This document shows, piece after piece, positions 8,651 to 55,992 of a DNA stretch of 64,000 bases. Location of the stretch: the NCBI RefSeq assembly GCF_002854065.1, contig NZ_CP024147.1; one strand, given 5' to 3'. Within the stretch, counting starts at the first letter, position 1, and every line of letters starts with the position of its first letter. The DNA comes from Escherichia coli. GTDB taxonomy: Bacteria > Pseudomonadota > Gammaproteobacteria > Enterobacterales > Enterobacteriaceae. The position numbers and the translations under genes were made by a program. The notes under the pieces are model-generated. The model saw nothing but the letters and a program-made list of their open reading frames with translations, was not told where the DNA came from and did no database searches.

Positions 8651-8740
8651 CAATGCCTGATGCGCCATGTTTATCAGGCCAACGGTAGAATTGTAATCTA
8701 TTGAATTTACGGGCCGGATACGCCACATCCGGCACAAGCA
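8651..8740. repeat. REP (repetitive extragenic palindromic) elements
   Basis: gcctgatgcgc...cttatcaggcc and gccggata...catccggc palindromic units. Confidence 0.8.
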
Positions 8741-8754
8741 TTAAGGCAAGAAAA

Positions 8755-9387: not shown

Positions 9388-9657
9388 AGCGGTCGTCTCC
9401 GTCAGTCAAAGCTTTGTGGCGATTATACCTGAACCATAATAAAAGGCGGATTTTTCGGCGTGAGCGTTGTAAGTAAAAGCCATACGCTTTGTGAGACATT
9501 GCCGATAGTCTTTATGCGAAATAGCAGAGAAAATTCTGCGATGCATGTCAAATAAGCTATATAAATCAGTGAATTGCTTTTATATAAAACTCTGAAAATG
9601 TGCAAATACTGATGGCGGTTGATTGTTTGTTTAAAGCAAAGGCGTAAAGTAACACCC

Positions 9658-9900
9658 ATAGAGCGAGGACGCTAACAGGAACAATGACTCAGGATGAGGG
9701 TCAGGAGCGCCAGGAGGCGAAGACAGAGGATTGTCAGGAAGACAAACGTCCGGAGACGTAATTAAACGGAAATGGAATCAACACGGATTGTTCCGGCTAA
9801 TGGAAAAACAGGGTGTGTTGGCGGCCTGCAAGGATTGTAAGACCCGTTAAGGGTTATGAGTCAGGAAAAAAGGCGACAGAGTAATCTGTCGCCTTTTTTC
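9658..9900 (+). ncRNA. csrC: CsrC small RNA (CsrA-sequestering)
   Basis: About 245 nt with many GGA/AGGA motifs, ending in hairpin aaggcgacagagtaatctgtcgcc plus T-run; located between engB and yihI. Confidence 0.85.
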
Positions 9901-9968
9901 TTTGCTTGCTTTCTGTTAGATTCCGCCGCAAATCTATACTGAATAAAACGGCTAAAAGACGAACCATT

Positions 9969-10475
9969 ATGAAACCATCTTCACCATCACGCAGCAAAGG
10001 TCATGCAAAAGCGCGTCGCAAAACGCGCGAAGAGCTGAATCAGGAAGCTCGTGACCGCAAGCGTCAGAAAAAACGTCGTGGTCATGCGCCGGGCAGCCGC
10101 GCAGCGGGCGGTAACACCACGTCAGGCAGCAAAGGCCAGAACGCACCAAAAGATCCACGTATTGGCAGTAAAACCCCTATTCCATTGGGCGTGACTGAAA
10201 AAGTCACCAAACAGCACAAACCGAAGAGTGAGAAACCTATGCTTTCACCGCAGGCGGAGTTGGAATTACTGGAAACGGATGAGCGTCTGGATGCGCTGCT
10301 GGAACGTCTGGAAGCAGGCGAAACCCTGAGTGCCGAAGAGCAATCCTGGGTGGATGCTAAACTGGATCGTATTGATGAGTTGATGCAGAAACTCGGCCTC
10401 TCTTATGACGATGACGAAGAAGAGGAAGAAGACGAGAAGCAAGAAGACATGATGCGTCTGCTGCGGGGCAACTAA
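9969..10475 (+). CDS. yihI: Der GTPase-activating protein YihI
   Basis: Basic N-terminus [18 protein letters not shown], acidic C-terminus. Confidence 0.92.
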
Positions 10476-10663
10476 CGGATTGCCGCCGTGGGCCTTCCCG
10501 TTCTGCTGATAACCCTTCCGGTTATATGTTATCTGGTGTGGTTATTCGTTAAACTACAGCGGTTGTCGCGGCGACAAAAGTGGCTGCGCAACCGGCTGAT
10601 GACCCGAAACGGGCATCCGCCGGTACGCCGTAGCCGCCAGAGACGCCATCGGAAGGAGTGAGC

Positions 10664-19550: not shown

Positions 19551-19605
19551 GGTGATGCTGCCAACTTACTGATTTAGTGTATGATGGTGTCTTTGAGGTG
19601 CTCCA

Positions 19606-19881
19606 GTGGCTTCTGTTTCTATCAGCTGTCCCTCCTGTTCAGCTACTGACGGGGTGGTGCGTAACGGCAAAAGCACTGCCGGACATCAGCGCTATCTCTG
19701 CTCTCACTGCCGTAAAACATGGCAACTGCAGTTCACTTACACCGCTTCTCAACCCGGTACGCACCAGAAAATCATTGATATGGCCATGAATGGCGTTGGA
19801 TGCCGGGCAACCGCCCGCATTATGGGCGTTGGCCTCAACACGATTTTCCGCCATTTAAAAAACTCAGGCCGCAGTCGGTAA
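19606..19881 (+). CDS. insA: IS1 InsA
   Basis: Identical 91-aa product. Confidence 0.95.
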
Positions 19882-20303
19882 CCTCGCGCATACAGCCGGG
19901 CAGTGACGTCATCGTCTGCGCGGAAATGGACGAACAGTGGGGATACGTCGGGGCTAAATCGCGCCAGCGCTGGCTGTTTTACGCGTATGACAGGCTCCGG
20001 AAGACGGTTGTTGCGCACGTATTCGGTGAACGCACTATGGCGACGCTGGGGCGTCTTATGAGCCTGCTGTCACCCTTTGACGTGGTGATATGGATGACGG
20101 ATGGCTGGCCGCTGTATGAATCCCGCCTGAAGGGAAAGCTGCACGTAATCAGCAAGCGATATACGCAGCGAATTGAGCGGCATAACCTGAATCTGAGGCA
20201 GCACCTGGCACGGCTGGGACGGAAGTCGCTGTCGTTCTCAAAATCGGTGGAGCTGCATGACAAAGTCATCGGGCATTATCTGAACATAAAACACTATCAA
20301 TAA
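19800..20303 (+). CDS. insB: IS1 InsB
   Basis: Identical 167-aa product. Confidence 0.93.
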
Positions 20304-20318
20304 GTTGGAGTCATTACC

Positions 20319-35450: not shown

Positions 35451-36506
35451 ATGAAAAGGAATTTATTATCTTCCGCTATTATAGTCGCCATCATGGCCCT
35501 CGGTCTGACGGGTTGTGATGATAAAAAAGCCGAAACAGAAACGCCCCCGCCTGCCAATAGTCAACCTGCCGCACCAGCTCCTGAAGCGAAACCTACTGAA
35601 GCTCCCGTTGCAAAAGCAGATGCTAAACCTGAAACACCTGCGCAACCGGTGGTCGATGAACAAGCGGTTTTCGACGAAAAAATGGATGTCTATATCAAGT
35701 GCTACAACAAGTTACAGATCCCTGTACAGAACAGTCTGGCGCGTTATGCTGACTGGCTGAAAGATTTTAAACAGGGGCCAACGGGTAAAGAGAGCCTTGT
35801 TTATGGCATCTACGGCATTAGTGAATCCAATCTCTCTGAGTGTCAAAAAGGAATAAAAAGAGTCGTGGCGTTAACGCCTGCGCTGCAACCTATTGATGGC
35901 GTGGCGGTGAGTTATATTGATGCTGCCGTGGCGTTGGGTAATACCATTAACGAAATGGATAAATATTACACCCAGGAAAATTATAAAGACGATGCGTTTG
36001 CGAAAGGGAAAACGCTGCACCAGACATTCTTAAAAAATCTGGAAGCCTTTGAACCTGTAGCAGAATCTTATCATGCGGCGATTCAGGAAATTAATGATAA
36101 GCGCCAGCTTGCGGAACTGAAAAATATTGAAGAAAGAGAAGGGAAAACATTCCACTACTACTCTCTGGCAGTCATGATTTCAGCGAAACAAATTAATAAC
36201 CTGATATCGCAAGAGAAGTTTGATGTTGATGCGGCAATGAAGAAAGTCTCTGAACTGGAAACGCTGGTAGCGCAGGCCAAAGAAGCGGATAAAGGCGGTA
36301 TGAATTTCTCGTTCATTAATTCGGCAGACCAGTATCAACTCGAGACTAAAAAATATGTTCGCCGCGTCAGAGATAAAGTCCCGTACTCTGACTGGGATAA
36401 AGAGCATCTTCAGGATGCAAACACAAGCTGGATGGTCGAAGACTCATTTCCACGAGCGTTACGCGAGTACAACGAAATGGTTGATGACTATAATAGCCTG
36501 CGTTAA
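35451..36506 (+). CDS. yiiG: Lipoprotein YiiG (DUF3829)
   Basis: 351-aa ORF with lipobox LTGC. Confidence 0.9.
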   Translation: MKRNLLSSAIIVAIMALGLTGCDDKKAETETPPPANSQPAAPAPEAKPTEAPVAKADAKPETPAQPVVDEQAVFDEKMDVYIKCYNKLQIPVQNSLARYADWLKDFKQGPTGKESLVYGIYGISESNLSECQKGIKRVVALTPALQPIDGVAVSYIDAAVALGNTINEMDKYYTQENYKDDAFAKGKTLHQTFLKNLEAFEPVAESYHAAIQEINDKRQLAELKNIEEREGKTFHYYSLAVMISAKQINNLISQEKFDVDAAMKKVSELETLVAQAKEADKGGMNFSFINSADQYQLETKKYVRRVRDKVPYSDWDKEHLQDANTSWMVEDSFPRALREYNEMVDDYNSLR

Positions 36507-36556
36507 ACGTTTTTGATGATAAATGCAGTGTCGGATGCGGCGCATCCGACACAGTT

Positions 36557-36993
36557 CACCCCTTGTGAAGTAACTCCATAAATGCCTCATATCCTGTTAA
36601 CCCGGCAATAACTTCTGCCGGATGCTGACACAATACGCTTGCCAGATAGCTGAATATTTTTAGCTCATGACGCGCATCGGCGGCGGCGCAGGCGATCAAA
36701 ACATGGTTAATGACTTCGTTATTCACCTCAACTGATTGGGCGAGGGTAATAAAAAATCCACGAAAACGTCGCTCCTGTTCGCTCCAGCAATGTGGGATGG
36801 CGAGGCGATTAACAATCAGGTTTTCACCTTCGCCTTCGCGGGCGATGATCCGTTGCGCTTCATCGGCGGTAATATGGTGTTGTGCGACTAATTGCGCACA
36901 AATTTGCCGGGTAATATGTTGCCAGCTTTCACCGCGTACATTCGAATAATGAAAACTTCCGGGGGCAGAGAAAAAACGCTCCGGTTGCTGGCG
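36557..36993 (-). pseudogene. frvR: frvR C-terminal fragment (PTS EIIA-like domain), 5' part removed by IS1
   Basis: Reverse-strand translation ...LIACAAADARHELKIFSYLASVLCQHPAEVIAGLTGYEAFMELLHKG*; interrupted by IS1 at 36994. Confidence 0.7.
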
Positions 36994-37008
36994 GGTAATG
37001 ACTCCAAC

Positions 37009-37512
37009 TTATTGATAGTGTTTTATGTTCAGATAATGCCCGATGACTTTGTCATGCAGCTCCACCGATTTTGAGAACGACAGCGACTTCCGTCCCAGCC
37101 GTGCCAGGTGCTGCCTCAGATTCAGGTTATGCCGCTCAATTCGCTGCGTATATCGCTTGCTGATTACGTGCAGCTTTCCCTTCAGGCGGGATTCATACAG
37201 CGGCCAGCCATCCGTCATCCATATCACCACGTCAAAGGGTGACAGCAGGCTCATAAGACGCCCCAGCGTCGCCATAGTGCGTTCACCGAATACGTGCGCA
37301 ACAACCGTCTTCCGGAGCCTGTCATACGCGTAAAACAGCCAGCGCTGGCGCGATTTAGCCCCGACGTATCCCCACTGTTCGTCCATTTCCGCGCAGACGA
37401 TGACGTCACTGCCCGGCTGTATGCGCGAGGTTACCGACTGCGGCCTGAGTTTTTTAAATGGCGGAAAATCGTGTTGAGGCCAACGCCCATAATGCGGGCG
37501 GTTGCCCGGCAT
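37009..37512 (-). CDS. insB: IS1 InsB
   Basis: Identical 167-aa product on minus strand. Confidence 0.93.
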
Positions 37513-37706
37513 CCAACGCCATTCATGGCCATATCAATGATTTTCTGGTGCGTACCGGGTTGAGAAGCGGTGTAAGTGAACTGCAGTTGCCATGTTTTAC
37601 GGCAGTGAGAGCAGAGATAGCGCTGATGTCCGGCAGTGCTTTTGCCGTTACGCACCACCCCGTCAGTAGCTGAACAGGAGGGACAGCTGATAGAAACAGA
37701 AGCCAC
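37431..37706 (-). CDS. insA: IS1 InsA
   Basis: Identical 91-aa product on minus strand. Confidence 0.95.
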
Positions 37707-37761
37707 TGGAGCACCTCAAAAACACCATCATACACTAAATCAGTAAGTTGGCAGCATCACC

Positions 37762-39063
37762 ATACGTCCCGAGGTAAATATTAAAGTTCTCCATATCCAT
37801 CACATTAGCGAACTGATAAGACGCATGAATGGTGTGAATGGTGTACGTCCCTTCATCATCAATCCAGCAGTCGTTATCACAAACTACACCGCTGAATTCA
37901 TCAATCTTATTGTGCGCGTAGATATAACCGAGCTCGAAACGTTTCCACAGCGCGTTAATCCCGGCAGTGAAATCTTTCTCATTATTAGCATCTAAATAGG
38001 CGGTATTAAGATTAACCACAATGCCATTGTCCGGATCCGTTTTCAGGCCGTTCCAGGTCATGCTCATACCATAGCCGGTACGATCGGACTGATCGACAAA
38101 ATTACCCTTGCTATCGGTATAACCATAAGCATTATTTACCACGTTCGCTTCCATCGCTGCGGAAACGGTGAATTCTTCCGTCGGCGACCAGGCAATTACT
38201 GGGCGCAGATAAGCAACATTTTTCTGCTGCTCCATATCGCGTCCATGATAATTACCGTCATTATATAAAGATGTTCCGTCTTCAAGTAACGTATTTAATT
38301 CAAAATACCAGTTATCGAGTTGTTTGCTGACGAGGAAATTACCGCCAGCGTTAGAGCGCCCGCGGCCCTCTTTCATCATATAGATATAACCGCTGCCATC
38401 GTCATAAAGATCGTTCGCAGTATTACCGGAATGTTCAACAAAGGTATCCTGATTCAGCGGGAACATATCGTAGGCTTCAAAACGGCCTACTTTGACCTTC
38501 CAGTCGTTTTCTTTGCCAAAGAAGAATACCGCATCATCGATATTTACTGAACCGTGCATATCACCCAGCGGTTGTGCGGAGAACCCGGCGAAATAACCGT
38601 TGTCCATCTTTCGCATACCGTCAAAACCTAACAGAATACGACCATTGAGATTCCACTGTTCATTAGTGGGATCGCTATTCACATCAGCGTTGGTCATTGC
38701 CAGCAGGCCATGATTACTTTCCGCATCCATATTAAATTCTACGTCGCCGTAGATTTTTAAATCGCCATAACCTGAAAGCAAAAGATTAGGTGAGGTGGCA
38801 TTTTTCTTTGCAGATTCCGTCGTTGCCTGTCCATTTACCGGCGTATTGCCCTGAGCGGCCTTAATTTCGCGGATCTCAGCGGCTTGTTGTGTCTGCAGCT
38901 GTTTAACCTGGCTCTCTGCTTTTGCTGCCCGCATTTCTGCCGCTTCCAGGCGTTCTTCCAGCAATGCCATGCGTTGTTCCAGCGTTAAATGCTGTGTTTT
39001 TGCCATACCGGTACTACATGCCAATAATAAACCGATGGCTAAAGATAATGTCGATTTTTTCAT
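37762..39063 (-). pseudogene. LamB/ScrY-family carbohydrate porin with N-terminal coiled-coil extension, 3'-truncated by IS1
   Basis: Signal peptide MKKSTLSLAIGLLLA, coiled-coil LEQRMALLEERLEAAEMRAAKAESQVKQLQ, then aromatic-rich beta-barrel-like sequence; ORF runs into IS1 (terminal GDAANLLI is IS1-encoded). Confidence 0.6.
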
Positions 39064-39540
39064 TATTTACGTTCCCTGAAATAAAGGAGGCCCTACGCTT
39101 TCCAAAAGGAATACGTATATAGAGAAATATAAAGTGTGCACTTTCGAATTTTTAATCCAACTTCAGCAGGCCGATGGATAGTATCCCGCCGCATAATATG
39201 AGTAAATCCGCTGATTTCCTGGAACGTGAGGAATATAACAATAGTGCCGTTTTTAACTAAATATCGTAAAAAATATTAGATATGATTCACGCTGACTCAT
39301 AAGCCACAAATATAAATAATGTTTAGACAAATTATCTGAGACATTTAAACATTCACAAAATCATTAAAGAATGATTTTTTATTCACAAGATTTATTTTAC
39401 CTACTAATATGTGCCTTACGCCGCAAAATTTATCCTTCACTCTGCTTTATATTGTCACGACTTCACGACATATCCGCGCTCATCACAAACCCGCCCCGCT
39501 ATTACAATTAACGTAAATATTTTTTCATGGAGTCCGATTA

Positions 39541-39694
39541 ATGGCAGCTCTTACTGCAAGCTGTATTGACCTGAATATTCAGGGCAATGGCACTTATTCC
39601 ATTCTGAAACAGTTAGCGACAATGGCGTTACAAAACGGTTTTATCACCGACTCACACCAGTTCCTGCAAACCCTGCTGCTGCGCGAAAAAATGC
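39541..39694 (+). pseudogene. frvA: frvA 5' fragment (PTS fructose-like EIIA), truncated by IS1 and on opposite strand from frvR fragment
   Basis: Translation MAALTASCIDLNIQGNGTYSILKQLATMALQNGFITDSHQFLQTLLLREKM then IS1. Confidence 0.75.
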
Positions 39695-39749
39695 GGTGAT
39701 GCTGCCAACTTACTGATTTAGTGTATGATGGTGTTTTTGAGGTGCTCCA

Positions 39750-40025
39750 GTGGCTTCTGTTTCTATCAGCTGTCCCTCCTGTTCAGCTACTGACGGGGTG
39801 GTGCGTAACGGCAAAAGCACTGCCGGACATCAGCGCTATCTCTGCTCTCACTGCCGTAAAACATGGCAACTGCAGTTCACTTACACCGCTTCTCAACCCG
39901 GTACGCACCAGAAAATCATTGATATGGCCATGAATGGCGTTGGATGCCGGGCAACCGCCCGCATTATGGGCGTTGGCCTCAACACGATTTTCCGCCATTT
40001 AAAAAACTCAGGCCGCAGTCGGTAA
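39750..40025 (+). CDS. insA: IS1 InsA
   Basis: Identical 91-aa product. Confidence 0.95.
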
Positions 40026-40447
40026 CCTCGCGCATACAGCCGGGCAGTGACGTCATCGTCTGCGCGGAAATGGACGAACAGTGGGGATACGTCGGGGCTA
40101 AATCGCGCCAGCGCTGGCTGTTTTACGCGTATGACAGGCTCCGGAAGACGGTTGTTGCGCACGTATTCGGTGAACGCACTATGGCGACGCTGGGGCGTCT
40201 TATGAGCCTGCTGTCACCCTTTGACGTGGTGATATGGATGACGGATGGCTGGCCGCTGTATGAATCCCGCCTGAAGGGAAAGCTGCACGTAATCAGCAAG
40301 CGATATACGCAGCGAATTGAGCGGCATAACCTGAATCTGAGGCAGCACCTGGCACGGCTGGGACGGAAGTCGCTGTCGTTCTCAAAATCGGTGGAGCTGC
40401 ATGACAAAGTCATCGGGCATTATCTGAACATAAAACACTATCAATAA
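39944..40447 (+). CDS. insB: IS1 InsB
   Basis: Identical 167-aa product. Confidence 0.93.
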
Positions 40448-40604
40448 GTTGGAGTCATTACCGGGACGTATTACTCCATTCTGGATAGCGACGGCGATAA
40501 AAAACACGGTGATGATACTGATGACCGTTACGGCGCACGCGTTCGCTTTAAATACTTCTTCTGATGAAGGCGCGGTGCTGGATATTTTCCGGCACCGCAA
40601 CTCA

Positions 40605-40919
40605 TTAAGGCAGGTAAAACACTTCTTGCAGCTCGCTACTCACCGGGCTGTTATCCGGGTTAGCTGGCATAACGTCGGTCATATATTTCCACCAACGTTG
40701 GCAGATTTCAGTGCTGGCTACCGCATTCCACCGTTCTTCAGATTCAATCTCTACCATGGCAAACAGCAGATTACGCGCTTTGTCGAGGTAAATGGCGTAG
40801 TTATGCGCACCGTGAGATTTCAACACTGCTTCCAGTTCCGGCCAGATGGGGTTATGCCGACGCTGATACTCTTCGTGGGCGTCGGGGTTAACCTGCATGA
40901 CAAAGGCTTTGCGGATCAT
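40605..40919 (-). CDS. rhaM: L-rhamnose mutarotase
   Basis: 104-aa [33 protein letters not shown]. Confidence 0.95.
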
Positions 40920-40928
40920 GTTTGCTCC

Positions 40929-41753
40929 TTACAGCGCCAGCGCACTGGCTAGTGGTGTAACGCCGAAGCGCTTGCCGAGCGCTATCAACTCTTCACGGCT
41001 GATGGTCTGTTTCATGCCGCCCATCGAATAAATCTTCACTAATACTTGTGCTGATTTTTCTGCGGTGTCGATTAAACCGAATGTTTCATCCAGCGTCGGT
41101 CCGGAACCGAACACACCGTGGAAGGGCCACAACACCAGCGAATGTTTCTGCATCTCTTGTGCGGTCGCCTGGCCGATTTCGTCCGTGCCGGGCACCATCC
41201 ACGGCAGAATGCCAACGCCATCCGGGAATACCACCAGACACTCGGTGCTGCCTTCCCACAGTTGGCGAGTAAAGACCGCGGTGTCGTTTTCCAGTACATA
41301 GGTGAGGGCGATCAGGTTGGTGGCGTGGCAGTGCATGATCACCCGATCTTTACCGTTGGTGGCTTTAATGCGCTCGCAGTGGGAGAGAAAGTGAGCCGGA
41401 AGTTCAGAAGTTGGAACGGCTTCGTTGGTTAACCCCCAGAGAATATGGTAGCCCGCGCCGTCGCTGTCGACTTTTACGACGCCTAAGTTAGCTGCAGGAT
41501 CAAGCTGGACGTTACGGAAGAATTTGCCGGAGCCGGTGACAATAAACGGCGTATTTGCCAGTAAAGGCATGGGCTGGCTGAGCGGAATATAGCGCGGTTG
41601 TGGGTGGAAGTTGTCGTGATAAAGCGCGATATCGGCGTCATCCAGGCGCAGCGTCAGGTTGCCGCCGTTGCGCTCGTCCCAGCCTTTCAGCCAGGCATCG
41701 GTGGTGGCTTTGATCATTCCCTGGACAAACCAGGACTGGGTAATGTTTTGCAT
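40929..41753 (-). CDS. rhaD: Rhamnulose-1-phosphate aldolase
   Basis: Start chosen at [32 protein letters not shown] (274 aa). Confidence 0.95.
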
Positions 41754-41789
41754 GTTCTGTGTTCCTGTAAATTCGGTGTTGTCGGATGC

Positions 41790-42195
41790 ACGACCCGTAG
41801 GCCGGATAAGGCGCTCGTGCCGCATCCGGCAATCAATGCCTGATGCGACGCTGTCGCGTCTTATCAGGCCTACAACTATTGCCGACCTGTAGGCCGGATA
41901 AGGCACTTGTGCCGCATCCGGCAATCAATGCCTGATGCGACGCTGTTGCGTCTTATCAGGCCTACAACTGTTGCCGACCTGTAGGCCGGATAAGGCACTT
42001 GTGCCGCATCCGGCAATCAATGCCTGATGCGACGCTGTCGCGTCTTATCAGGCCTACAACTATTGCCGACCTGTAGGCCGGATAAGGCACTTGTGCCGCA
42101 TCCGGCAATCAATGCCTGATGCGATGTCGCGTCTTATCAGGCCTACAACTGTTGCCGACCTGTAGGCCGGATAAGGCACTTGTGCCGCATCCGGC
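41790..42195. repeat. BIME/REP tandem array in rhaD-rhaA intergenic region
   Basis: About 4.5 tandem units containing gtaggccggataaggcacttgtgccgcatccggc and gcctgatgcgacgctgtcgcgtcttatcaggcc palindromes. Confidence 0.9.
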
Positions 42196-42200
42196 AGTGT

Positions 42201-45213
<3,013 letters not shown>

Positions 45214-46050
45214 ATGACCGTATTACATAGTGTGGATTTTTTTCCGTCTGGTAACGCGTCCGTGGCGATAGAACCCCGGCTCCCGCAGGCGGATTTTCCT
45301 GAACATCATCATGATTTTCATGAAATTGTGATTGTCGAACATGGCACGGGTATTCATGTGTTTAATGGGCAGCCCTATACCATCACCGGTGGCACGGTCT
45401 GTTTTGTGCGCGACCATGATCGGCATCTGTATGAACATACCGATAATCTGTGTCTGACCAATGTGCTATATCGCTCGCCGGATCGATTTCAGTTTCTCGC
45501 CGGGCTGAATCAGTTGCTGCCACAAGAGCTGGATGGGCAGTATCCGTCTCACTGGCGCGTTAACCACAGCGTATTGCAGCAGGTGCGACAGCTGGTTGCA
45601 CAGATGGAACAGCAGGAAGGGGAAAATGATTTACCCTCGACCGCCAGTCGCGAGATCTTGTTTATGCAATTACTGCTCTTGCTGCGTAAAAGCAGTTTGC
45701 AGGAGAACCTGGAAAACAGCGCATCACGTCTCAACTTGCTTCTGGCCTGGCTGGAGGACCATTTTGCCGATGAGGTGAATTGGGATGCCGTGGCGGATCA
45801 ATTTTCTCTTTCGCTGCGTACGCTACATCGGCAGCTTAAGCAGCAAACGGGACTGACGCCTCAGCGTTACCTGAACCGCCTGCGACTGATGAAGGCTCGA
45901 CATCTGCTACGTCACAGCGAGGCCAGCGTTACTGACATCGCCTATCATTGCGGATTCAGCGACAGTAACCACTTTTCAACGCTTTTTCGCCGAGAGTTTA
46001 ACTGGTCACCGCGTGATATTCGTCAGGGACGGGATGGCTTTCTGCAATAA
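45214..46050 (+). CDS. rhaS: AraC-family activator RhaS
   Basis: 278-aa ORF with cupin N-domain and C-terminal AraC HTH. Confidence 0.96.
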
Positions 46051-46123
46051 CGCGAATCTTCTCAACGTATTTGTACGCCATATTGCGAATAATCAACTTC
46101 GTTCTCTGGCCGAGGTAGCCACG

Positions 46124-46972
46124 GTGGCGCATCAGTTAAAACTTCTCAAAGATGATTTTTTTGCCAGCGACCAGCAGGCAGTCGCTGTGGCTGACCGTTA
46201 TCCGCAAGATGTCTTTGCTGAACATACACATGATTTTTGTGAGCTGGTGATTGTCTGGCGCGGTAATGGTCTGCATGTACTCAACGATCGCCCTTATCGC
46301 ATTACCCGTGGCGATCTCTTTTACATTCATGCTGACGATAAACACTCCTACGCTTCCGTTAACGATCTGGTTTTGCAGAATATTATTTATTGCCCGGAGC
46401 GGCTGAAGCTGAATCTTGACTGGCAGGGGGCGATTCCGGGATTTAGCGCCAGCGCAGGGCAACCACACTGGCGCTTAGGTAGCATGGGGATGGCACAGGC
46501 GCGGCAGGTTATCGGTCAGCTTGAGCATGAAAGTAGTCAGCATGTGCCGTTTGCTAACGAAATGGCAGAGTTGCTGTTCGGGCAGTTGGTGATGTTGCTG
46601 AATCGCCATCGTTACACCAGTGATTCGTTGCCGCCAACATCCAGCGAAACGTTGCTGGATAAGCTGATTACCCGGTTGGCGGCTAGCCTGAAAAGTCCCT
46701 TTGCGCTGGATAAATTTTGTGATGAGGCATCGTGCAGTGAGCGCGTTTTGCGTCAGCAATTTCGCCAGCAGACTGGAATGACCATCAATCAATATCTGCG
46801 GCAGGTCAGAGTGTGTCATGCGCAATATCTTCTCCAGCATAGCCGCCTGTTAATCAGTGATATTTCGACCGAATGTGGCTTTGAAGATAGTAACTATTTT
46901 TCGGTGGTGTTTACCCGGGAAACCGGGATGACGCCCAGCCAGTGGCGCCATCTCAATTCGCAGAAAGATTAA
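46124..46972 (+). CDS. rhaR: AraC-family activator RhaR
   Basis: In-frame GTG start giving (M)[17 protein letters not shown]; overlaps rhaS 3' region in long ORF 46013-46972. Confidence 0.88.
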
Positions 46973-48003
46973 TTCGCCATGCCGATGCCGACGATGTTAG
47001 CGGCGACAATAATCACCACACAACCGAGGCTCAACACCGTTACCGGACGGCGTCCTGCATTGTTCCACTCTTTCAGCTCCAGCCCGACGATACCGCCGCA
47101 CAATACATAGAAACTCATATGCAGCATCCAACTGATGTAGTCATACTGCGCCGGAATGCGGGCGTGGCCCCAGGCATAGAAAAAGAATTGCAGATACCAC
47201 ATCAACCCGCCCAGTGCCGAGAGTAACACATTGTGAATGATCAGCGATTTTGCCAGCGAGAAGTCGGATTTTAGCGACAAATCCTTCACTTTTGCCAGAC
47301 GAATAAAACAGAAACCGAGGTTAATGATCGCGCCGCCGCCCATGATGACAACATAGCTTGGCAGAGCGACATACAGTGGATCGACGCCTAGTGCGGCAGC
47401 GGCTTCATGCATCGGTTTTGCGGCGTTCATCGCAAAGGACATCCCGGCAGAGAAAATGCCGCACATCACCGCCAGCACCAGTCCTTTTTTCAGATTGAAC
47501 TCTTCGGCTTTAATGCCCATCTTGCGCTCTTTCAACTGCCCGGCTCGAGTTACAATCCCTACGCCAATCAGCGCCACCAGAACGCCGAGCAACGTCATGC
47601 GTCCGCCTTCGGTGCTAATCAACACATCGAAATTGCCGTTGATAATTGGCGTCATCAGCGTACCGACAATCAACGTAATGCCAATGGCGATGCCAATTCC
47701 CATCGACATGCCGAGATAACGCATGGTCAGGCCGTAGTTGATATTACCGATCCCCCACATAGCGCCGAACAGAAAAACAGGCAGCAGCGTAGAGAGACTA
47801 AACGAGCTGTAATACGCCCAGAAATTCGGTAGTAACAGGGCGCTGATGGCCCACGGCAGAATAATCCACGAAACAATCCCACCGACTGACCACATGGTTT
47901 CCCATGACCATTTTTTTACTTTTTTGAACGGAGCGTAAAAACAGGCTGCACTGGCCGCGCCGATCAAATGCCAAAATATCCCCATCGTAATCGCGTTACT
48001 CAT
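46969..48003 (-). CDS. rhaT: L-rhamnose-proton symporter
   Basis: 344-aa 10-TM ORF. Confidence 0.95.
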
Positions 48004-48287
48004 CTTCTTATCCTCATCATTTTTCGTCGCGTCACATCTCCGACGAGATGAGTGTAAAAATCGTGCTGTCGATTAACCTTTCGCCTGTTGCCGCCGTTGT
48101 CGATTTACTGGCAATCACGGCATTAAGTGGGTGATTTGCTTCACATCTCGGGCATTTTCCTGCAAAACCATACCCTTACGAAAAGTACGGCATTGATAAT
48201 CATTTTCAATATCATTTAATTAACTATAATGAACCAACTGCTTACGCGGCATTAACAATCGGCCGCCCGACAATACTGGAGATGAAT

Positions 48288-48908
48288 ATGAGCTATACCC
48301 TGCCATCCCTGCCGTATGCTTACGATGCCCTGGAACCGCACTTCGATAAGCAGACCATGGAAATCCACCACACCAAACACCATCAGACCTACGTCAACAA
48401 CGCCAACGCGGCGTTGGAAAGCCTGCCAGAATTTGCCAACCTGCCGGTTGAAGAGCTGATCACCAAACTGGACCAGCTGCCAGCAGACAAGAAAACCGTA
48501 CTGCGCAACAACGCTGGCGGTCACGCTAACCACAGCCTGTTCTGGAAAGGTCTGAAAAAAGGCACCACCCTGCAGGGTGACCTGAAAGCGGCTATCGAAC
48601 GTGACTTCGGCTCCGTTGATAACTTCAAAGCAGAATTTGAAAAAGCGGCAGCTTCCCGCTTTGGTTCCGGCTGGGCATGGCTGGTGCTGAAAGGCGATAA
48701 ACTGGCGGTGGTTTCTACTGCTAACCAGGACTCCCCGCTGATGGGTGAAGCTATTTCTGGCGCTTCCGGCTTCCCGATTCTGGGCCTGGATGTGTGGGAA
48801 CATGCTTACTACCTGAAATTCCAGAACCGCCGTCCGGACTACATCAAAGAGTTCTGGAACGTGGTGAACTGGGACGAAGCAGCGGCACGTTTCGCGGCGA
48901 AAAAATAA
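48288..48908 (+). CDS. sodA: Manganese superoxide dismutase
   Basis: [32 protein letters not shown] with Mn/Fe-SOD metal ligands. Confidence 0.98.
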
Positions 48909-49167
48909 TCATTTGCCGTCTGCTGCAATGAGGCGTTTACGCCGCATATCAGCTTAAAAAATGAACCATCGCCAATGGCGGTGGTTTTTTTGTGATCAAT
49001 TTCAAAATAAAAACAATGATCCTATAAAAATAAAACAGTGTTTCAATTGATGTGGTTTTGATCACTTTTATTGATTAAATGAATGTCTATCTTCGTTTCC
49101 ATCAACACTGATGCTCCATTGAGGAATTACGCATCAGCCCTTAAAAATATGCCGACAGGTGATGGAA

Positions 49168-50151
49168 ATGCAGATAAAACGCTCGATTGAGAAAATCCCG
49201 GGGGGGATGATGCTCGTCCCGCTATTCCTTGGCGCACTGTGCCACACCTTCTCGCCGGGGGCGGGGAAATATTTTGGATCATTCACCAACGGGATGATTA
49301 CCGGTACGGTGCCCATTCTGGCGGTGTGGTTTTTTTGCATGGGGGCGTCAATAAAATTAAGCGCGACGGGAACGGTACTGCGTAAATCCGGTACGCTGGT
49401 GGTAACTAAAATTGCCGTCGCGTGGGTGGTTGCGGCAATTGCCTCGCGCATTATTCCGGAACATGGTGTTGAAGTTGGATTCTTTGCCGGACTTTCAACG
49501 CTGGCGCTGGTGGCGGCGATGGATATGACCAACGGCGGACTTTACGCTTCCATCATGCAGCAGTACGGCACAAAAGAAGAAGCTGGGGCATTTGTGTTGA
49601 TGTCGTTGGAGTCCGGGCCGCTCATGACGATGATTATTCTGGGCACTGCCGGGATTGCCTCGTTTGAACCGCATGTTTTCGTCGGCGCAGTATTACCGTT
49701 CCTGGTGGGCTTTGCCCTTGGGAACCTTGACCCTGAATTACGAGAATTTTTCAGCAAAGCGGTGCAGACGCTGATTCCATTCTTTGCCTTCGCACTAGGC
49801 AATACCATTGATTTGACTGTAATTGCCCAGACAGGTTTGCTGGGGATCCTGTTGGGTGTGGCAGTAATTATCGTGACCGGTATTCCGTTGATTATCGCCG
49901 ATAAATTGATTGGCGGTGGCGATGGCACTGCCGGAATTGCCGCTTCCAGTTCCGCAGGGGCCGCGGTAGCGACACCTGTGCTGATTGCAGAAATGGTGCC
50001 TGCGTTTAAACCGATGGCTCCGGCAGCAACTTCGCTGGTAGCGACGGCAGTCATTGTGACTTCGATTCTGGTGCCAATTCTTACCTCTATCTGGTCACGT
50101 AAAGTCAAAGCCAGAGCGGCGAAAATCGAAATTTTAGGTACGGTGAAATAA
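49168..50151 (+). CDS. kdgT: 2-keto-3-deoxygluconate permease
   Basis: 327-aa membrane [26 protein letters not shown]. Confidence 0.93.
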
Positions 50152-50299
50152 ACCTGCTTCCTTAATCCCCACCGCCGGATGAACTAACGTTCGTCCGGTT
50201 TGCTATTGAGTTCCTGCCTGGATACTTACCGCGAAAACAGCACGCCTGACATAAAATAAATATGGTCTAATGGGGAAATTTCTCGTGGAGAGGGAACAG

Positions 50300-50974
50300 A
50301 TGCGATATCCGGTTGATGTATACACAGGCAAGATTCAGGCTTATCCCGAAGGCAAACCCAGCGCAATTGCCAAAATCCAGGTTGATGGTGAGTTGATGCT
50401 GACGGAGCTGGGGCTGGAAGGTGACGAGCAGGCGGAGAAAAAGGTTCACGGCGGGCCAGACAGAGCGCTGTGTCATTATCCTCGTGAGCACTATCTCTAC
50501 TGGGCGCGGGAATTTCCGGAACAGGCGGAGTTGTTTGTTGCGCCTGCGTTTGGTGAAAATCTCTCAACCGACGGTCTGACGGAAAGTAATGTTTATATGG
50601 GCGATATTTTCCGCTGGGGAGAGGCATTAATTCAGGTCAGCCAGCCGCGCTCGCCTTGCTATAAACTCAATTACCATTTTGATATCAGCGATATAGCGCA
50701 GTTGATGCAAAACACGGGTAAAGTGGGCTGGCTATATAGCGTGATAGCGCCGGGGAAAGTGTCTGCGGACGCACCGCTGGAGCTGGTTTCCCGTGTCAGC
50801 GATGTGACCGTGCAGGAGGCTGCCGCCATCGCATGGCATATGCCGTTTGATGACGATCAGTATCACTGTTTACTCTCCGCCGCCGGGTTATCGAAAAGCT
50901 GGACGCGAACGATGCAAAAGCGCCGACTGAGCGGCAAGATCGAAGATTTTTCCCGCCGGTTGTGGGGAAAATAA
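50300..50974 (+). CDS. yiiM: MOSC-domain protein YiiM
   Basis: Start at MRYPVDVYTGKIQAYPEGK (224 aa). Confidence 0.9.
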   Translation: MRYPVDVYTGKIQAYPEGKPSAIAKIQVDGELMLTELGLEGDEQAEKKVHGGPDRALCHYPREHYLYWAREFPEQAELFVAPAFGENLSTDGLTESNVYMGDIFRWGEALIQVSQPRSPCYKLNYHFDISDIAQLMQNTGKVGWLYSVIAPGKVSADAPLELVSRVSDVTVQEAAAIAWHMPFDDDQYHCLLSAAGLSKSWTRTMQKRRLSGKIEDFSRRLWGK

Positions 50975-50979
50975 CCCCC

Positions 50980-51065
50980 GGAGTGTAGGCCTGATAAGAC
51001 GCTATCAGCGTCGCATCAGGCATCCTGCTCAAATGCCGGATGCGGCGTAAACGCCTTATCCTGCC
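50980..51065. repeat. REP elements
   Basis: gcctgataagacgc...gcgtcgcatcaggc and gccggatgcggcg palindromes. Confidence 0.8.
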
Positions 51066-51079
51066 TACAAATGCGGAGT

Positions 51080-52453
51080 TTAACTCCGCTTATACAGCGG
51101 CAACCAAATCACCAGCCGTAAACCGCCCAGCGGGCTGTCTTCTGCCTTCACCCAGCCACGATGCTGCTGAATGGCGGTTTCAACAATCGCCAGCCCCAAA
51201 CCTGTACCGCCAGATTCACGATCGCGTGCTTCATCGGTCCGATAGAACGGACGGAAAATCTGTTCGCGATCTTCCGGGCTAACGCCAGGACCATCGTCGT
51301 CCACCGTAATGGTGATACCGTCTTTATCTACCGCAAAGCCCACTTCAATCTTCGTATGGGAATAACGCAGAGCATTACGAACAATGTTTTCCAGCGCACT
51401 TTCCAGGGCGTTCGGATTGCCGTACAGCGGCCACGGCCCAGGCGGGAAGTTAACTGTCAACGACTTGCCCATTTGCTCGGCTTCGAACGCCGCGTTATCC
51501 AGCACTTCGCCCCACAACTGGTTGGCTTTGATGGTCTCGCTTACCAGCGCGTTTTTTTGCTGATTACGTGACATCACCAACAGGTCGTTAATCATGCTGT
51601 CTAGACGTTGCGCTTCGGTTTCAATACGCTCCAGTTCTTTGCTTTCACCGCTACGACGGCGCAGTAACGCCGTACCCAGTTGCAGACGCGTCAGTGGCGT
51701 GCGCAGCTCGTGAGAGATATCAGAAAGCAGACGCTGCTGGGAGGTCATCATACGCTCCAGCGCGGTGACCATCTGGTTAAAACTGGCACCTGCGGCAAGG
51801 AATTCCTGTGGCCCCGCTTCCAGTTCCGGGTGCTGGCGTAAGTTTCCCTGGGCAACTTCATCGGCAGCGTTTTTCAGCTTACGCGCCGGTTTTGCCAGAC
51901 TCCAGGCCAACCACAACAGCAGCGGCGTACTGACCAACATGGTGACAATCAGCAGTAATAGCGGGCGGTCAAACAGTAAGTTAATGAAATCGGATTGAGA
52001 ACTGCTGGCCGGACGAATCAGATAAAGTTGGTAATTATCTTCGCCATCACGCACGGAGAACGGACCGACCAGTTCCACGCGGCCATACTTTTTCTTCTGC
52101 GGATGATCGGCGTTATCGGCCTGACCAATAAAGTTACGAATGATCTGCATTTCGCTGCGTTCAGCGCCGATCACGCGGCCTTCGGTGGTCACTAATAACA
52201 AACGCTGTCCTGGCGGTGCCCACTTATCAATCGCCCGGAACAGACGCCGCCACCACATTAAATCGTTGGGCGGATCGTTCGCCAGCTCCGCTTCAACATG
52301 CTGCTCAATCATCAGACCCTGACGCTGTTCGCTATCCAGAAGCTCGGTCATCTGGCGTGAATCGAGCTTGGGTAACATCAAAACCAACATCAACACCAGC
52401 GCCAGCGTCAGCCAGAAGATGGCGAAGATGCGCGCGGTTAAGCTGCCTATCAT
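51080..52453 (-). CDS. cpxA: Envelope stress sensor histidine kinase CpxA
   Basis: 457-aa ORF with two TM segments, HAMP and HisKA/HATPase domains. Confidence 0.97.
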   Translation of the reverse strand: MIGSLTARIFAIFWLTLALVLMLVLMLPKLDSRQMTELLDSEQRQGLMIEQHVEAELANDPPNDLMWWRRLFRAIDKWAPPGQRLLLVTTEGRVIGAERSEMQIIRNFIGQADNADHPQKKKYGRVELVGPFSVRDGEDNYQLYLIRPASSSQSDFINLLFDRPLLLLIVTMLVSTPLLLWLAWSLAKPARKLKNAADEVAQGNLRQHPELEAGPQEFLAAGASFNQMVTALERMMTSQQRLLSDISHELRTPLTRLQLGTALLRRRSGESKELERIETEAQRLDSMINDLLVMSRNQQKNALVSETIKANQLWGEVLDNAAFEAEQMGKSLTVNFPPGPWPLYGNPNALESALENIVRNALRYSHTKIEVGFAVDKDGITITVDDDGPGVSPEDREQIFRPFYRTDEARDRESGGTGLGLAIVETAIQQHRGWVKAEDSPLGGLRLVIWLPLYKRS

Positions 52454-53148
52454 GAAGCAGAAACCATCAGGTAGCCGCGACCACGCAAAGTTTTAAACCA
52501 CGGGTGACCATCTTTACGATCCGGCAGTTTACGACGCAGGTTGGAAATGTGCATATCGATAGCGCGGTCGAAAGGCGTCAGGCGTTTGCCCAGCACTTCC
52601 TGGCTTAAATGTTCACGGGAAACCACCTGACCCAGATGCTGTGCCAGCAAATAGAGCAGGGTAAACTCAGTACCGGTTAACTCCAGCGTTTGCCCGTCGA
52701 AGCTGGCTTCCTGACGGCCTGGATTCAGCACTAAGGCATCAACTTCCAGTGTCGGTGAACCGTTGTCGTTGTTTTGCTGTTGCTCGCTCCAGTGCGAACG
52801 GCGCAGGATCGCGCGAATACGTGCCACCAGCTCACGATCATTAAACGGTTTCGGGAGATAGTCATCTGCGCCCAGCTCAAGGCCGAGAACGCGATCAAGT
52901 TCACTGCCGCGCGCCGTCAACATAATGACAGGCGTCTGGTGTGTCTGGCGAAGTGCTTTTAATGTGTCGATACCATTTTTCTTCGGCATCATTACGTCAA
53001 GCAAAAGTAAATCAATGCTGTCGTCCAGAAGATCAAGCGCCTGTTCCCCATCGTGGGCAACAATCACGTTGAAGCCTTCCATCTCGAGCAGCTCCTTTAA
53101 TAGGGAAGTCAGCTCTCGGTCATCATCAACTAACAGGATTTTATTCAT
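52450..53148 (-). CDS. cpxR: Envelope stress response regulator CpxR (OmpR family)
   Basis: 232-aa ORF, overlaps cpxA start by 4 nt. Confidence 0.97.
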   Translation of the reverse strand: MNKILLVDDDRELTSLLKELLEMEGFNVIVAHDGEQALDLLDDSIDLLLLDVMMPKKNGIDTLKALRQTHQTPVIMLTARGSELDRVLGLELGADDYLPKPFNDRELVARIRAILRRSHWSEQQQNNDNGSPTLEVDALVLNPGRQEASFDGQTLELTGTEFTLLYLLAQHLGQVVSREHLSQEVLGKRLTPFDRAIDMHISNLRRKLPDRKDGHPWFKTLRGRGYLMVSAS

Positions 53149-53202
53149 TGTTTAAATACCTCCGAGGCAGAAATTACGTCATCAGACGTCGCTAATCCAT
53201 GA

Positions 53203-53218
53203 CTTTACGTTGTTTTAC
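53203..53218. promoter_or_regulatory. CpxR box (GTAAA-N5-GTAAA) in cpxR-cpxP divergent promoter
   Basis: Plus strand ctttacgttgttttac is the reverse complement of GTAAAacaacGTAAAg. Confidence 0.75.
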
Positions 53219-53297
53219 ACCCCCTGACGCATGTTTGCAGCCTGAATCGTAAACTCTCTATCGTTGAATCGCGACAGAAAGATTTTGGGAGCAAATG

Positions 53298-53798
53298 ATG
53301 CGCATAGTTACCGCTGCCGTCATGGCCTCAACGCTGGCAGTCAGTTCATTAAGCCACGCTGCTGAAGTCGGTTCAGGCGATAACTGGCATCCGGGTGAAG
53401 AACTTACGCAGCGCAGTACGCAGAGCCATATGTTCGACGGCATAAGTTTAACCGAACATCAGCGTCAGCAGATGCGAGATCTTATGCAACAGGCCCGGCA
53501 CGAACAGCCTCCTGTTAATGTTAGCGAACTGGAGACAATGCATCGCCTTGTCACCGCAGAAAATTTTGATGAAAACGCTGTGCGCGCACAGGCAGAAAAA
53601 ATGGCGAATGAGCAAATTGCTCGTCAGGTTGAGATGGCAAAAGTCCGCAACCAAATGTATCGCCTGTTAACGCCGGAGCAGCAAGCGGTTTTAAACGAGA
53701 AACATCAACAACGAATGGAGCAGTTGCGTGACGTGACGCAATGGCAAAAAAGTTCATCGTTGAAGCTATTGAGTAGTAGCAACTCACGTTCCCAGTAG
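53298..53798 (+). CDS. cpxP: Periplasmic Cpx pathway inhibitor/adaptor CpxP
   Basis: 166-aa [27 protein letters not shown] with LTxxQ motifs. Confidence 0.96.
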
Positions 53799-53807
53799 TA
53801 AACCCTG

Positions 53808-53868
53808 TTTTCCTTGCCATAGACACCATCCCTGTCTTCCCCCACATGATGTGGGGGTTTTTTTTATC
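53808..53868 (+). ncRNA. cpxQ: Probable CpxQ sRNA (3'-UTR-derived from cpxP mRNA)
   Basis: About 60 nt immediately after cpxP stop ending in strong terminator cccccacatgatgtggggg plus T-run. Confidence 0.6.
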
Positions 53869-53946
53869 CTCAATTTGCCTGCTGCTTAATGCATTGCAGA
53901 TGATTTGCTTCCGTTATACTAGCGTCAGTTGATAGCGGGAGTATTT

Positions 53947-54849
53947 ATGAATCAATCTTATGGACGGCTGGTCAGTCGGGCGGCGATTGCTGCGACGGCG
54001 ATGGCTTCGCTGCTATTGCTGATTAAAATTTTTGCATGGTGGTATACCGGGTCGGTGAGTATTCTCGCCGCGCTGGTGGATTCGCTGGTGGATATCGGCG
54101 CGTCGTTGACGAATTTACTGGTGGTGCGATATTCCCTGCAACCTGCCGACGATAATCACTCGTTTGGTCACGGTAAAGCTGAGTCCCTCGCGGCGCTGGC
54201 GCAAAGTATGTTTATCTCCGGTTCGGCACTATTCCTGTTTTTGACGGGTATTCAACATCTGATATCTCCAACACCGATGACAGATCCAGGCGTCGGGGTT
54301 ATCGTGACAATTGTGGCGCTAATTTGTACGATTATCCTTGTCTCGTTTCAGCGTTGGGTGGTGCGCCGGACGCAAAGCCAGGCGGTGCGGGCTGATATGC
54401 TACATTACCAGTCTGATGTTATGATGAACGGCGCAATTCTGCTCGCGCTGGGGTTGTCCTGGTACGGCTGGCATCGCGCCGATGCTCTGTTTGCATTGGG
54501 AATCGGCATCTATATTTTATATAGCGCGTTACGCATGGGATATGAGGCGGTACAGTCATTACTGGATCGCGCATTACCTGATGAGGAACGGCAAGAAATT
54601 ATTGATATCGTGACTTCCTGGCCGGGTGTTAGCGGCGCTCACGATCTTCGCACGCGGCAGTCAGGGCCGACCCGCTTTATTCAGATTCATTTGGAAATGG
54701 AAGACTCTCTGCCTTTGGTTCAGGCACATATGGTGGCGGATCAGGTAGAGCAGGCTATTTTACGGCGTTTTCCGGGATCGGATGTGATTATCCATCAGGA
54801 CCCCTGTTCCGTCGTACCCAGGGAGGGTAAACGGTCTATGCTTTCATAA
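53947..54849 (+). CDS. fieF: Cation diffusion facilitator Fe/Zn efflux transporter FieF
   Basis: Start at [23 protein letters not shown] (300 aa). Confidence 0.94.
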
Positions 54850-55029
54850 TCAGTATAAAAGAGAGCCAGACCCGCATTTTGTGTATAAAATACCGCCATT
54901 TGGCCTGACCTGAATCAATTCAGCAGGAAGTGATTGTTATACTATTTGCACATTCGTTGGATCACTTCGATGTGCAAGAAGACTTCCGGCAACAGATTTC
55001 ATTTTGCATTCCAAAGTTCAGAGGTAGTC

Positions 55030-55992
55030 ATGATTAAGAAAATCGGTGTGTTGACAAGCGGCGGTGATGCGCCAGGCATGAACGCCGCAATTCGCGGGGT
55101 TGTTCGTTCTGCGCTGACAGAAGGTCTGGAAGTAATGGGCATTTATGACGGCTATCTGGGTCTGTATGAAGACCGTATGGTACAGCTAGACCGTTACAGC
55201 GTTTCTGACATGATCAACCGTGGCGGTACGTTCCTCGGTTCTGCGCGTTTCCCGGAATTCCGCGACGAGAACATCCGCGCCGTGGCTATCGAAAACCTGA
55301 AAAAACGTGGGATCGATGCGCTGGTGGTTATCGGCGGTGACGGTTCCTACATGGGTGCAATGCGTCTGACCGAAATGGGCTTCCCGTGCATCGGCCTGCC
55401 GGGTACTATCGACAACGACATCAAAGGCACTGACTACACTATCGGTTTCTTCACTGCGCTGAGCACCGTTGTAGAAGCGATCGACCGTCTGCGTGACACC
55501 TCTTCTTCTCACCAGCGTATTTCCGTGGTGGAAGTGATGGGCCGTTATTGTGGCGATCTGACGCTGGCTGCGGCTATTGCCGGTGGCTGTGAATTCGTTG
55601 TGGTTCCGGAAGTTGAATTCAGCCGTGAAGACCTGGTAAACGAAATCAAAGCGGGTATCGCGAAAGGTAAAAAACACGCGATCGTGGCGATTACCGAACA
55701 TATGTGTGATGTTGACGAACTGGCGCATTTCATCGAGAAAGAAACCGGTCGTGAAACCCGCGCAACTGTGCTGGGCCACATCCAGCGCGGTGGTTCTCCG
55801 GTGCCTTACGACCGTATTCTGGCTTCCCGTATGGGCGCTTACGCTATCGATCTGCTGCTGGCAGGTTACGGCGGTCGTTGCGTAGGTATCCAGAACGAAC
55901 AGCTGGTTCACCACGACATCATCGACGCTATCGAAAACATGAAGCGTCCGTTCAAAGGCGACTGGCTGGATTGCGCGAAAAAACTGTATTAA
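55030..55992 (+). CDS. pfkA: 6-phosphofructokinase I
   Basis: [25 protein letters not shown]; 320 aa. Confidence 0.98.

Follow-up and report, generated by a model that had tools for sequence, protein, structure and literature searches.

The DNA analysed here is a 64,000-nt stretch of Escherichia coli contig NZ_CP024147.1 (the window, to which all coordinates refer). Between yiiG and rhaM, where the main reference used here carries the frv genes and a carbohydrate porin gene, it contains two copies of IS1 together with fragments of frvR, frvA and the porin gene. The first-pass annotation of this stretch had placed an inverted IS1 (copy 3) and a direct one (copy 4) on either side of a module at 37762-39694. 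The two copies were found exactly there, copy 3 being the 100% reverse complement of copy 4, and this mutually inverted pair encloses 1933 bp. The features of the interval are listed below, with the left and right terminal inverted repeats of IS1 abbreviated to IRL and IRR and reference positions given for locus L001 of E. coli 33F4.

35451-36506, plus strand: yiiG, the left flank, intact and natively oriented; named YiiG in the reference annotations
36556-36993, minus strand: frvR 3' remnant (L001 15059-15496), the last 145 codons and stop, encoding the phosphotransferase system (PTS) EIIA-like C-terminal domain
36994-37761, minus strand: IS1 copy 3, 768 bp, IRR end at the frvR remnant and IRL end at the porin 5' fragment
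37762-37770, no strand: target duplication copy A, ATACGTCCC (L001 9001-9009), next to the IRL end of copy 3
37762-39063, minus strand: porin 5' part, nt 1-1302 of 1395, inverted relative to its native context
39064-39540, no strand: porin-frvA divergent intergenic region, 477 nt, AT-rich (~39% GC), native and carried in the inversion
39541-39694, plus strand: frvA 5' remnant (L001 10780-10933), 154 nt or 51 codons, ending at the IRL of copy 4, which is the deletion junction
39695-40462, plus strand: IS1 copy 4, 768 bp, IRL at the frvA remnant and IRR at the porin 3' remnant
39750-40025, plus strand: insA of copy 4, with the insB' frame running to 40447
40463-40471, no strand: target duplication copy B, GGGACGTAT, which reads as copy A on the opposite strand and adjoins the IRR end of copy 4
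40463-40564, plus strand: porin 3' remnant, the final 102 nt of the gene with the duplicated 9 bp counted in, natively oriented beside rhaM and encoding GTYYSILDSDGDKKHGDDTDDRYGARVRFKYFF followed by the stop
40605-40919, minus strand: rhaM, the intact right flank

The main reference was E. coli 33F4 (accession number NZ_CM147849.1, loci L001 and L014), and the window was compared with L001 by local BLAST; counts of genomes refer to the 5426 complete RefSeq E. coli genomes. In window orientation, the order in 33F4 is fdoG, fdhD (plus), yiiG (plus), frvR, frvX, frvB and frvA (all minus), a gene for a 464-aa carbohydrate porin (plus), rhaM (minus) and rhaD. The same native order of yiiG, frvR-frvX-frvB-frvA, porin and rhaM was also found in TUM10008, EC09, 4FM, AS19 and MB30. 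In intact loci, frvA and frvBXR share one orientation and the 3' end of the porin gene points toward rhaM. The stretch from the porin gene to frvA is contiguous in 2543 of the 5426 genomes. Alignment to K-12 had been proposed in the first-pass annotation, but K-12 is a poor reference because the porin gene is absent from K-12-type genomes (the KH_005-type locus). The comparison with 33F4 returned the predicted pattern of inversion plus deletion, in four blocks.

Window 33001-36515, L001 19103-15589, reversed: fdoG, fdhD and yiiG, 99.4% identity
Window 36537-36993, L001 15515-15059, reversed: last 438 nt of frvR and 19 nt downstream, 95.2% identity
Window 37762-39694, L001 9001-10933, same strand: porin 5' part, intergenic region and frvA 5' part, 99.6% identity
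Window 40462-46000, L001 9010-3469, reversed: porin 3' part, rhaM and beyond, 98.2% identity

Since the strand on which 37762-39694 matches L001 is opposite to that of the blocks on either side, this segment is inverted relative to both flanks. The whole arrangement (35400-41000) was found in none of the 5426 genomes. Two ways in which this picture might have been misleading had been raised earlier, namely that frvA lies natively on this strand in the lineage or that the missing genes lie just beyond an assembly gap. The former was ruled out, as native frvA is co-oriented with frvBXR and the order is canonical in all of the intact references and in contig L006, which is 100% identical to the window where they overlap; the latter does not apply to the window, which contains no N. 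Beyond rhaM, rhaBADM-rhaSR-rhaT are all intact open reading frames (ORFs).

What is left of the frv operon agrees with the earlier description, in which only an EIIA-like tail of frvR on the minus strand lay to the left of the module and the first 154 nt of frvA lay inside it on the plus strand, contrary to the orientation of the operon. The frvR remnant matched positions 442-586 of the 586 in the FrvR model NF007366 (E 3e-79) and shares 95.9% amino acid identity with FrvR residues 438-582, the N-terminal 437 codons having been deleted. The frvA remnant, which was placed by the alignment to L001, corresponds to positions 1-51 of the 148 in NF007389. The deletion amounts to 4125 bp (L001 10934-15058) and comprises frvA nt 155-447, frvB, frvX and frvR nt 1-1311. 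No sequence resembling these 4125 bp was found anywhere in the 64-kb window, and the possibility that the missing frv genes lie elsewhere in the window was rejected. The absence of frvB and frvX from the module, reported previously, thus extends to the whole window, and with frvA reduced to 51 of 148 codons and frvR to 145 of 582 the window has no intact frvABXR operon, in agreement with the earlier view of a non-functional locus. As frvB-frvX are absent from 1229 of the 5426 complete genomes (23%), loss of frv is unsurprising; it is common and presumably cheap. The block with the frvR remnant (36537-36993) is only 95.2% identical to 33F4, compared with 99.4-99.6% for the flanks and module, and is 100% identical to E. 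coli CUWW06; this suggests that the frvR allele has had a mosaic or recombinant history.

The porin gene had been described as truncated within the module. It is, but it is also split, and the other half, which was to be sought elsewhere in the genome, was found directly to the right of copy 4 at 40463-40564, where it aligns to L001 from 9009 down to 8908. The truncated ORF (37735-39063, 442 aa) reads 9 codons into IS1, and residues 435-464 (the last 30, ...YSILDSDGDKKHGDDTDDRYGARVRFKYFF, ending in RVRFKYFF) are replaced by 8 IS1-encoded residues. Residues 1-434 share 99.8% amino acid identity with the intact 464-aa porin of 33F4. The protein matched the Pfam domain Porin_8 and is RafY-like, with 79% amino acid identity to the porin of plasmid raf operons; none of the NCBIfam models matched it. 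Many E. coli plasmids carry such a raf operon (alpha-galactosidase, MFS transporter, GH32 hydrolase and porin), and in one of them (accession number NZ_CP020515.1, L018, bases 4402-10744) an IS1 is found ~400 bp from the porin 3' end. Despite the Porin_8 match, the ORF in the window is not a full-length RafY-like glycoporin, which would have ~464 aa and a C-terminal aromatic residue. The C-terminal aromatic signal has a role in the assembly of outer-membrane beta-barrels, and because this signal is lost, outer-membrane assembly of the truncated protein is unlikely and presumably does not occur. GenBank lists the truncated product under E. coli (AUJ94179.1), and it was found in ~70 blocks of public assemblies.

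The junctions read frvR tail-IRR[copy 3]IRL-porin 5' and frvA 5'-IRL[copy 4]IRR-porin 3'. The 9 bp duplicated at the two porin junctions form an inverted pair, with one copy inside the flipped segment and one outside, and a duplication split in this way is the hallmark of an inversion between the two IS1 copies. The remaining two flanks, TTGCTGGCG on the frvR side and AAAAAATGC on the frvA side, are unrelated and show no duplication, which fits the expectation where a deletion ends.

There are four IS1 copies in the window, each of 768 bp; copies 1, 3 and 4 are identical and copy 2 differs by one base. Copies 3 and 4 both end in GGTGATGCTGCCAACTTA on the left and TAAGTTGGAGTCATTACC on the right; these are imperfect inverted repeats, the right end read as its reverse complement (GGTAATGACTCCAACTTA) agreeing with the left in 15 of 18 positions. 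All four have terminal repeats, insA, the insB' frame and the A6C frameshift motif (AAAAAAC at IS1 position 307). The insA product (91 aa) corresponds to positions 1-81 and the insB frame to positions 76-199 of the 199 in NF033558, and the identical IS1 in CUWW06 is annotated in RefSeq as an IS1B transposase with programmed frameshift. None of the four copies is flanked by a direct target duplication, and each is found at a deletion, inversion or duplication breakpoint.

IS1 is known to generate 8-9 bp duplications and to transpose mainly replicatively (PMC12428005, which also gives its length as 768 bp). Intramolecular target-primed transposition leads to adjacent deletions when the attack is in cis or to inversions when it is in trans, and this has been documented for IS1/Tn9 (PMC9330008). 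That the window contains the outcome of an IS1-mediated inversion and deletion in situ, at an accessory frv-porin locus, is hardly in doubt, and this core is common to both of the routes considered below. IS1-mediated adjacent deletions and inversions are also familiar from the classical work on gal and on Tn951/Tn9.

The route we favour begins with the deletion. IS1 would have inserted in frvR, and its IRL end would then have made an adjacent deletion extending up to frvA nt 154, leaving frvR tail, IS1 and frvA 5' part followed by an intact porin gene and rhaM. The same IS1 would next have attacked the recurrent target ATACGTCCC, close to the porin 3' end, by intramolecular replicative transposition, and the outcome would have been an inversion. 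This last step would create in one go the second, inverted IS1 copy, the flipped segment and the target duplication as an inverted pair. All of the junctions fit the product of such a duplicative inversion, and the two old junctions (frvR tail-IRR and IRL-frvA 5') are retained on different copies. The state expected after the deletion is seen in two contigs, L022 and L026, which have the same junction between frvA nt 154 and the IRL of IS1 together with an intact 464-aa porin gene in native order next to rhaM. L022, from ERZ27250582, differs from the window by 1 mismatch in 2020 nt, and the two contigs plausibly represent a candidate precursor in which the deletion came first. As to this particular order, deletion followed by one-step duplicative inversion, we consider it an even call. 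The first-pass annotation had attributed the arrangement to recombination between inverted IS1 copies plus IS1-associated deletions; the inversion and the deletions stand, and a one-step duplicative inversion is equally possible as an alternative to recombination between pre-existing copies.

The other order, in which IS1 copies were present at both the frvR site and the porin target while frv was still intact, falls somewhat short of probable, though it is a serious candidate. The two sites would have been occupied by independent insertion or by duplicative inversion, and the block frvR5'-frvX-frvB-frvA-porin5' would have been inverted by RecA-dependent recombination between the 768-bp copies or by the duplicative step itself. 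An IS1-end adjacent deletion would then have taken frvR5'-frvX-frvB-frvA3' as far as frvA nt 154. This order is compatible with each of the four junction ends, and adjacent deletions from IS1 ends are seen in the relatives CUWW06, ECZP248 and SL124. The precursor it predicts also appears to exist, and this weighs against deletion first. In contigs L006, L007 and L013 the porin 5'/IS1-IRL junction is found with frvA continuing past nt 154, and L006, which comes from SRR14573963 and matches 1961 nt of the window with 100% identity, spans intact frvA, frvB, frvX and the 5' part of frvR and stops 6 nt into the frvR breakpoint of the window. A precursor of the L006 type means that the favoured route needs a second, independent insertion at the porin target in a close relative. 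L022 and L026, moreover, are metagenome contigs, for which chimeric assembly is possible, and little weight can be given to copies 3 and 4 being 100% identical, as copy 1, 35 kb away, is identical too. The four junction sequences are also the same for duplicative inversion and for recombination of pre-existing inverted copies, so these mechanisms cannot be separated from sequence alone, and nor can the order be fixed in this way, because both candidate precursor states exist. On the other side, the combination in L022 and L026 of the nt-154 junction with an intact porin gene would require, if both copies came first, a precise excision of IS1, an imported porin allele or an independent event at the same nucleotide. 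An IS1 end at frvA nt 154 was found in no other genome, the other insertions lying near the start of frvA, at ~nt 36 and at ~nt 72. A recurrent nt-154 endpoint or a restored porin gene is therefore needed, and no precedent was found for either. There are no IS1 bases at the left end of L006, and an insertion at the frvR site of that strain is presumed rather than observed. A synthetic IS1/frvR-5' junction query gave no single-piece match, and a scan for the exact pattern in JGI metagenome contigs gave 0 matches, a result that carries no information because the contigs of this lineage come from ENA, Logan and NCBI and not from JGI. Among complete genomes, the frvR-tail/IS1 junction was found as a single piece only in CUWW06 and the IS1/porin-3' junction only in ECZP248, 2018-11-3CC and TBU0218, while the frvA nt154/IS1 and IS1/porin-5' junctions had no single-piece match in any. 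Deletion first is favoured because the only recurrence it requires is insertion at the porin site, which IS1 has hit repeatedly and which is a likely hot spot.

Two further explanations would remove the inversion or its local origin. Short-read assemblers can mis-orient a 1.9-kb segment between 768-bp inverted repeats, and in vivo flipping may also occur, so the inverted orientation could be an assembly artefact hiding an unflipped structure with a simple IS1 insertion in the porin gene and an IS1-flanked deletion. Both flip isomers carry the same four IS1 junctions and reads of <768 bp are therefore unable to orient the segment. The public contigs of the module that end in IS1 all stop inside it, most of the module contigs doing so at both ends (L008-L012, L023-L025). 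However, contig L021, from independent samples (Logan ERR10017574, with the same contig in three samples), joins window 33660-36719 to 37765-39722 with 100% identity, having lost 36720-37764 (274 nt of the frvR tail, the whole of copy 3 and 3 nt beyond). It crosses the left border without a repeat, and its porin 5' fragment points to yiiG and away from rhaM, as in the window. Because L021 spans this border in the inverted order, the inversion existed in the lineage. The window is also free of gaps, and even if the segment were unflipped in the strain, the two isomers would be expected to interconvert through inverted repeats of 768 bp separated by 1.9 kb; we regard an artefact as very improbable. 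The architecture of two intact inverted IS1 copies around a segment is also that of an IS1 compound transposon such as Tn1681, in which the IS1 copies are inverted (in Tn9 they are direct), and the unit might have arrived from elsewhere. Its outer ends, however, lack a direct 9-bp duplication (TTGCTGGCG versus GGGACGTAT), and the sequence to its right takes up exactly where the porin fragment inside the unit breaks off, the two sharing the target duplication. The cargo is native to this very locus, and every public contig of the module has the same flanks or frv sequence, with no unrelated locus or replicon among them. The plasmid matches are to the separate rafY gene of raf operons, with ~79% amino acid identity. 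Insertion of a compound transposon was rejected on the missing outer duplication and the continuity of flank and cargo, and its likelihood is close to nil. As in Tn1681 and Tn9, two intact IS1 copies surround a short chromosomal segment, but the unit in the window has neither an outer target duplication nor evidence of movement, and its cargo is two gene fragments native to the site.

The 9-bp target ATACGTCCC has been used by IS1 elsewhere (L004 6002-6769; L019 and L020 5383-6150). In EC09 there is a simple IS1 insertion with the same 9 bp as a direct repeat and in the opposite orientation. In ECZP248, 2018-11-3CC and TBU0218 the IRR/porin-3' junction is the same, and in the same orientation, but in a different background (97.8-98% identity in rha), and the other IS1 end is joined to fdhD. 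This makes at least two independent insertions, in both orientations, and probably three when the second genetic background is counted, and ATACGTCCC near the porin 3' end is likely to be an IS1 hot spot. IS1 was also found in the porin-frvA intergenic region (4FM), in frvA at the start region (B2C), ~nt 36 (AS19) and ~nt 72 (MB30), in frvR with a 537-nt tail left (KH_005) and in the porin gene (TUM10008).

Deletions in this interval have arisen independently in SL124, where a porin tail of 249 nt meets an frvR tail of 333 nt, in the ECZP248 group and in the lineage common to CUWW06 and the window. CUWW06 (accession number NZ_CP182139.1, L002) is 99.99% identical to window 28202-37761 and 47922-55921 and lacks 37762-47921 (10,160 bp). 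The left edge of this deletion coincides exactly with the IRL end of copy 3 and its right edge falls within rhaT; lost with it are the module and copy 4, the tail of the porin gene, rhaMDAB, rhaSR and the greater part of rhaT. By this comparison, CUWW06 is a further IS1-end deletion from a window-like ancestor, and the IS1 ends appear to stay active in the lineage. A further IS1 in CUWW06 lies beside yiiF and ends opposite window position 28202. That ATACGTCCC is a true hot spot, and that IS1 has worn down the AT-rich frv-porin interval again and again, by convergence, in different E. coli lineages, is a tentative proposal, slightly short of an even call. If it holds, L022, the window, L021 and CUWW06 would form a natural series of precursor, one-step duplicative inversion, loss of an IS1 copy and larger deletion, and could be used to illustrate, step by step, how IS1 transposes intramolecularly on a chromosome.

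The remaining IS1 copies also lie at rearrangements. Copy 1 (1397-2164, plus strand, identical to copies 3 and 4) has no 9-bp duplication. On either side of it lies instead a directly repeated 559-bp piece of the dsbA region (838-1396 and 2165-2723, 558 of 559 positions identical), which leaves a full dsbA on the left of the IS1 and a second, 5'-truncated dsbA on the right. This duplication was not found as one contiguous piece in any complete RefSeq E. coli genome, and it may be an IS1-mediated tandem-duplication joint. Copy 2 (19551-20318, plus strand, one-base difference) has no target duplication and lies at a 1442-bp deletion relative to 33F4, with the yihL 3' end, yihM and the yihN 5' part lost; this site is another IS1-end deletion in the window.

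Three further features of the window lie outside these rearrangements. A 615-aa ORF (25218-27065, plus strand; 604 aa from the second Met) lies between fabY/yiiD and yiiE in a low-GC islet (36-42% GC, ~24850-28400) and is labelled "transposase / hypothetical protein" in RefSeq. It had no match in Pfam, NCBIfam, PADLOC or PDB sequence searches, and its family has 51 representatives in 1.84 billion, with a conserved motif GCKSAKDRT in which C499, D504 and R505 are invariant and the other residues are conserved in >=90% of sequences. In INPP4A/B, the catalytic CX5R motif has the sequence CKSAKDRT (PMC3248162). The best structural match of the confident AlphaFold model (pLDDT 86, pTM 0.87) was Salmonella SopB (8jzl, E 5e-7), followed by Legionella SidP and SidF, Fig4, P-Rex1 and myotubularin (MTMR2), all of which are CX5R phosphoinositide phosphatases or relatives. 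The model points to a protein that is probably an unannotated SopB-like phosphoinositide phosphatase. The ORF is full-length in ~1061 of the 5426 complete genomes and is represented in K-12 by a 65-nt remnant. Between rhaD and rhaA (41791-42196), a palindromic, REP/BIME-like 92-nt unit is repeated 4.4 times in tandem (96% matches), and its copy number varies among the reference strains. Finally, fdoG (31221-34271, minus strand) appears as two ORFs (33684-34271 and 31221-33635) with an in-frame stop between them, where the references have one 3051-nt coding sequence; we take this stop to be the normal selenocysteine TGA codon of formate dehydrogenase and not the mark of a pseudogene.

The rearrangement resembles the known IS1 adjacent deletions and inversions (PMC9330008) in that the deletion starts at an IS1 terminus, the inversion lies between inverted IS1 copies and the 9 bp form an inverted pair. 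There is no mechanistic difference, and what distinguishes the present case is that it is natural and chromosomal, with plausible precursor and descendant states in public assemblies. In trans attack by IS26 likewise gives a duplicated inverted IS, a flipped segment and an inverted target duplication, in plasmids and chromosomes (PMC4471558, PMC10501869), but IS26 belongs to the IS6 family and not the IS1 family, and at frv there is no resistance phenotype or selectable consequence. With four IS1 in 64 kb and an accessory carbohydrate-uptake locus pseudogenised, the window recalls the decay of Shigella and IS-rich E. coli. Reductive evolution driven by IS is well known in these lineages. The present strain differs in that its matches are to E. 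coli records (99.99% for CUWW06, and a truncated porin product recorded as an E. coli protein) and in that the rha genes next door are intact. A literature search on frv with IS1 or Shigella found nothing specific to the frv-porin rearrangement.

The event is a routine IS1-mediated inversion and deletion that pseudogenised an accessory PTS operon and a porin gene, and is of a known kind. It explains why mere fragments of frvA, frvR and the frv-adjacent porin gene are present in this strain. In annotation, both parts of the porin gene and the remnants of frvA and frvR should be treated as pseudogene fragments belonging to a single rearranged locus. Neither yiiG nor the rha genes on the flanks have been affected, and no polar effect would be expected because copy 4 lies downstream of rhaM. 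A wider value is possible in the IS1 hot spot and in the public sequences that resemble successive steps of IS1-driven decay.

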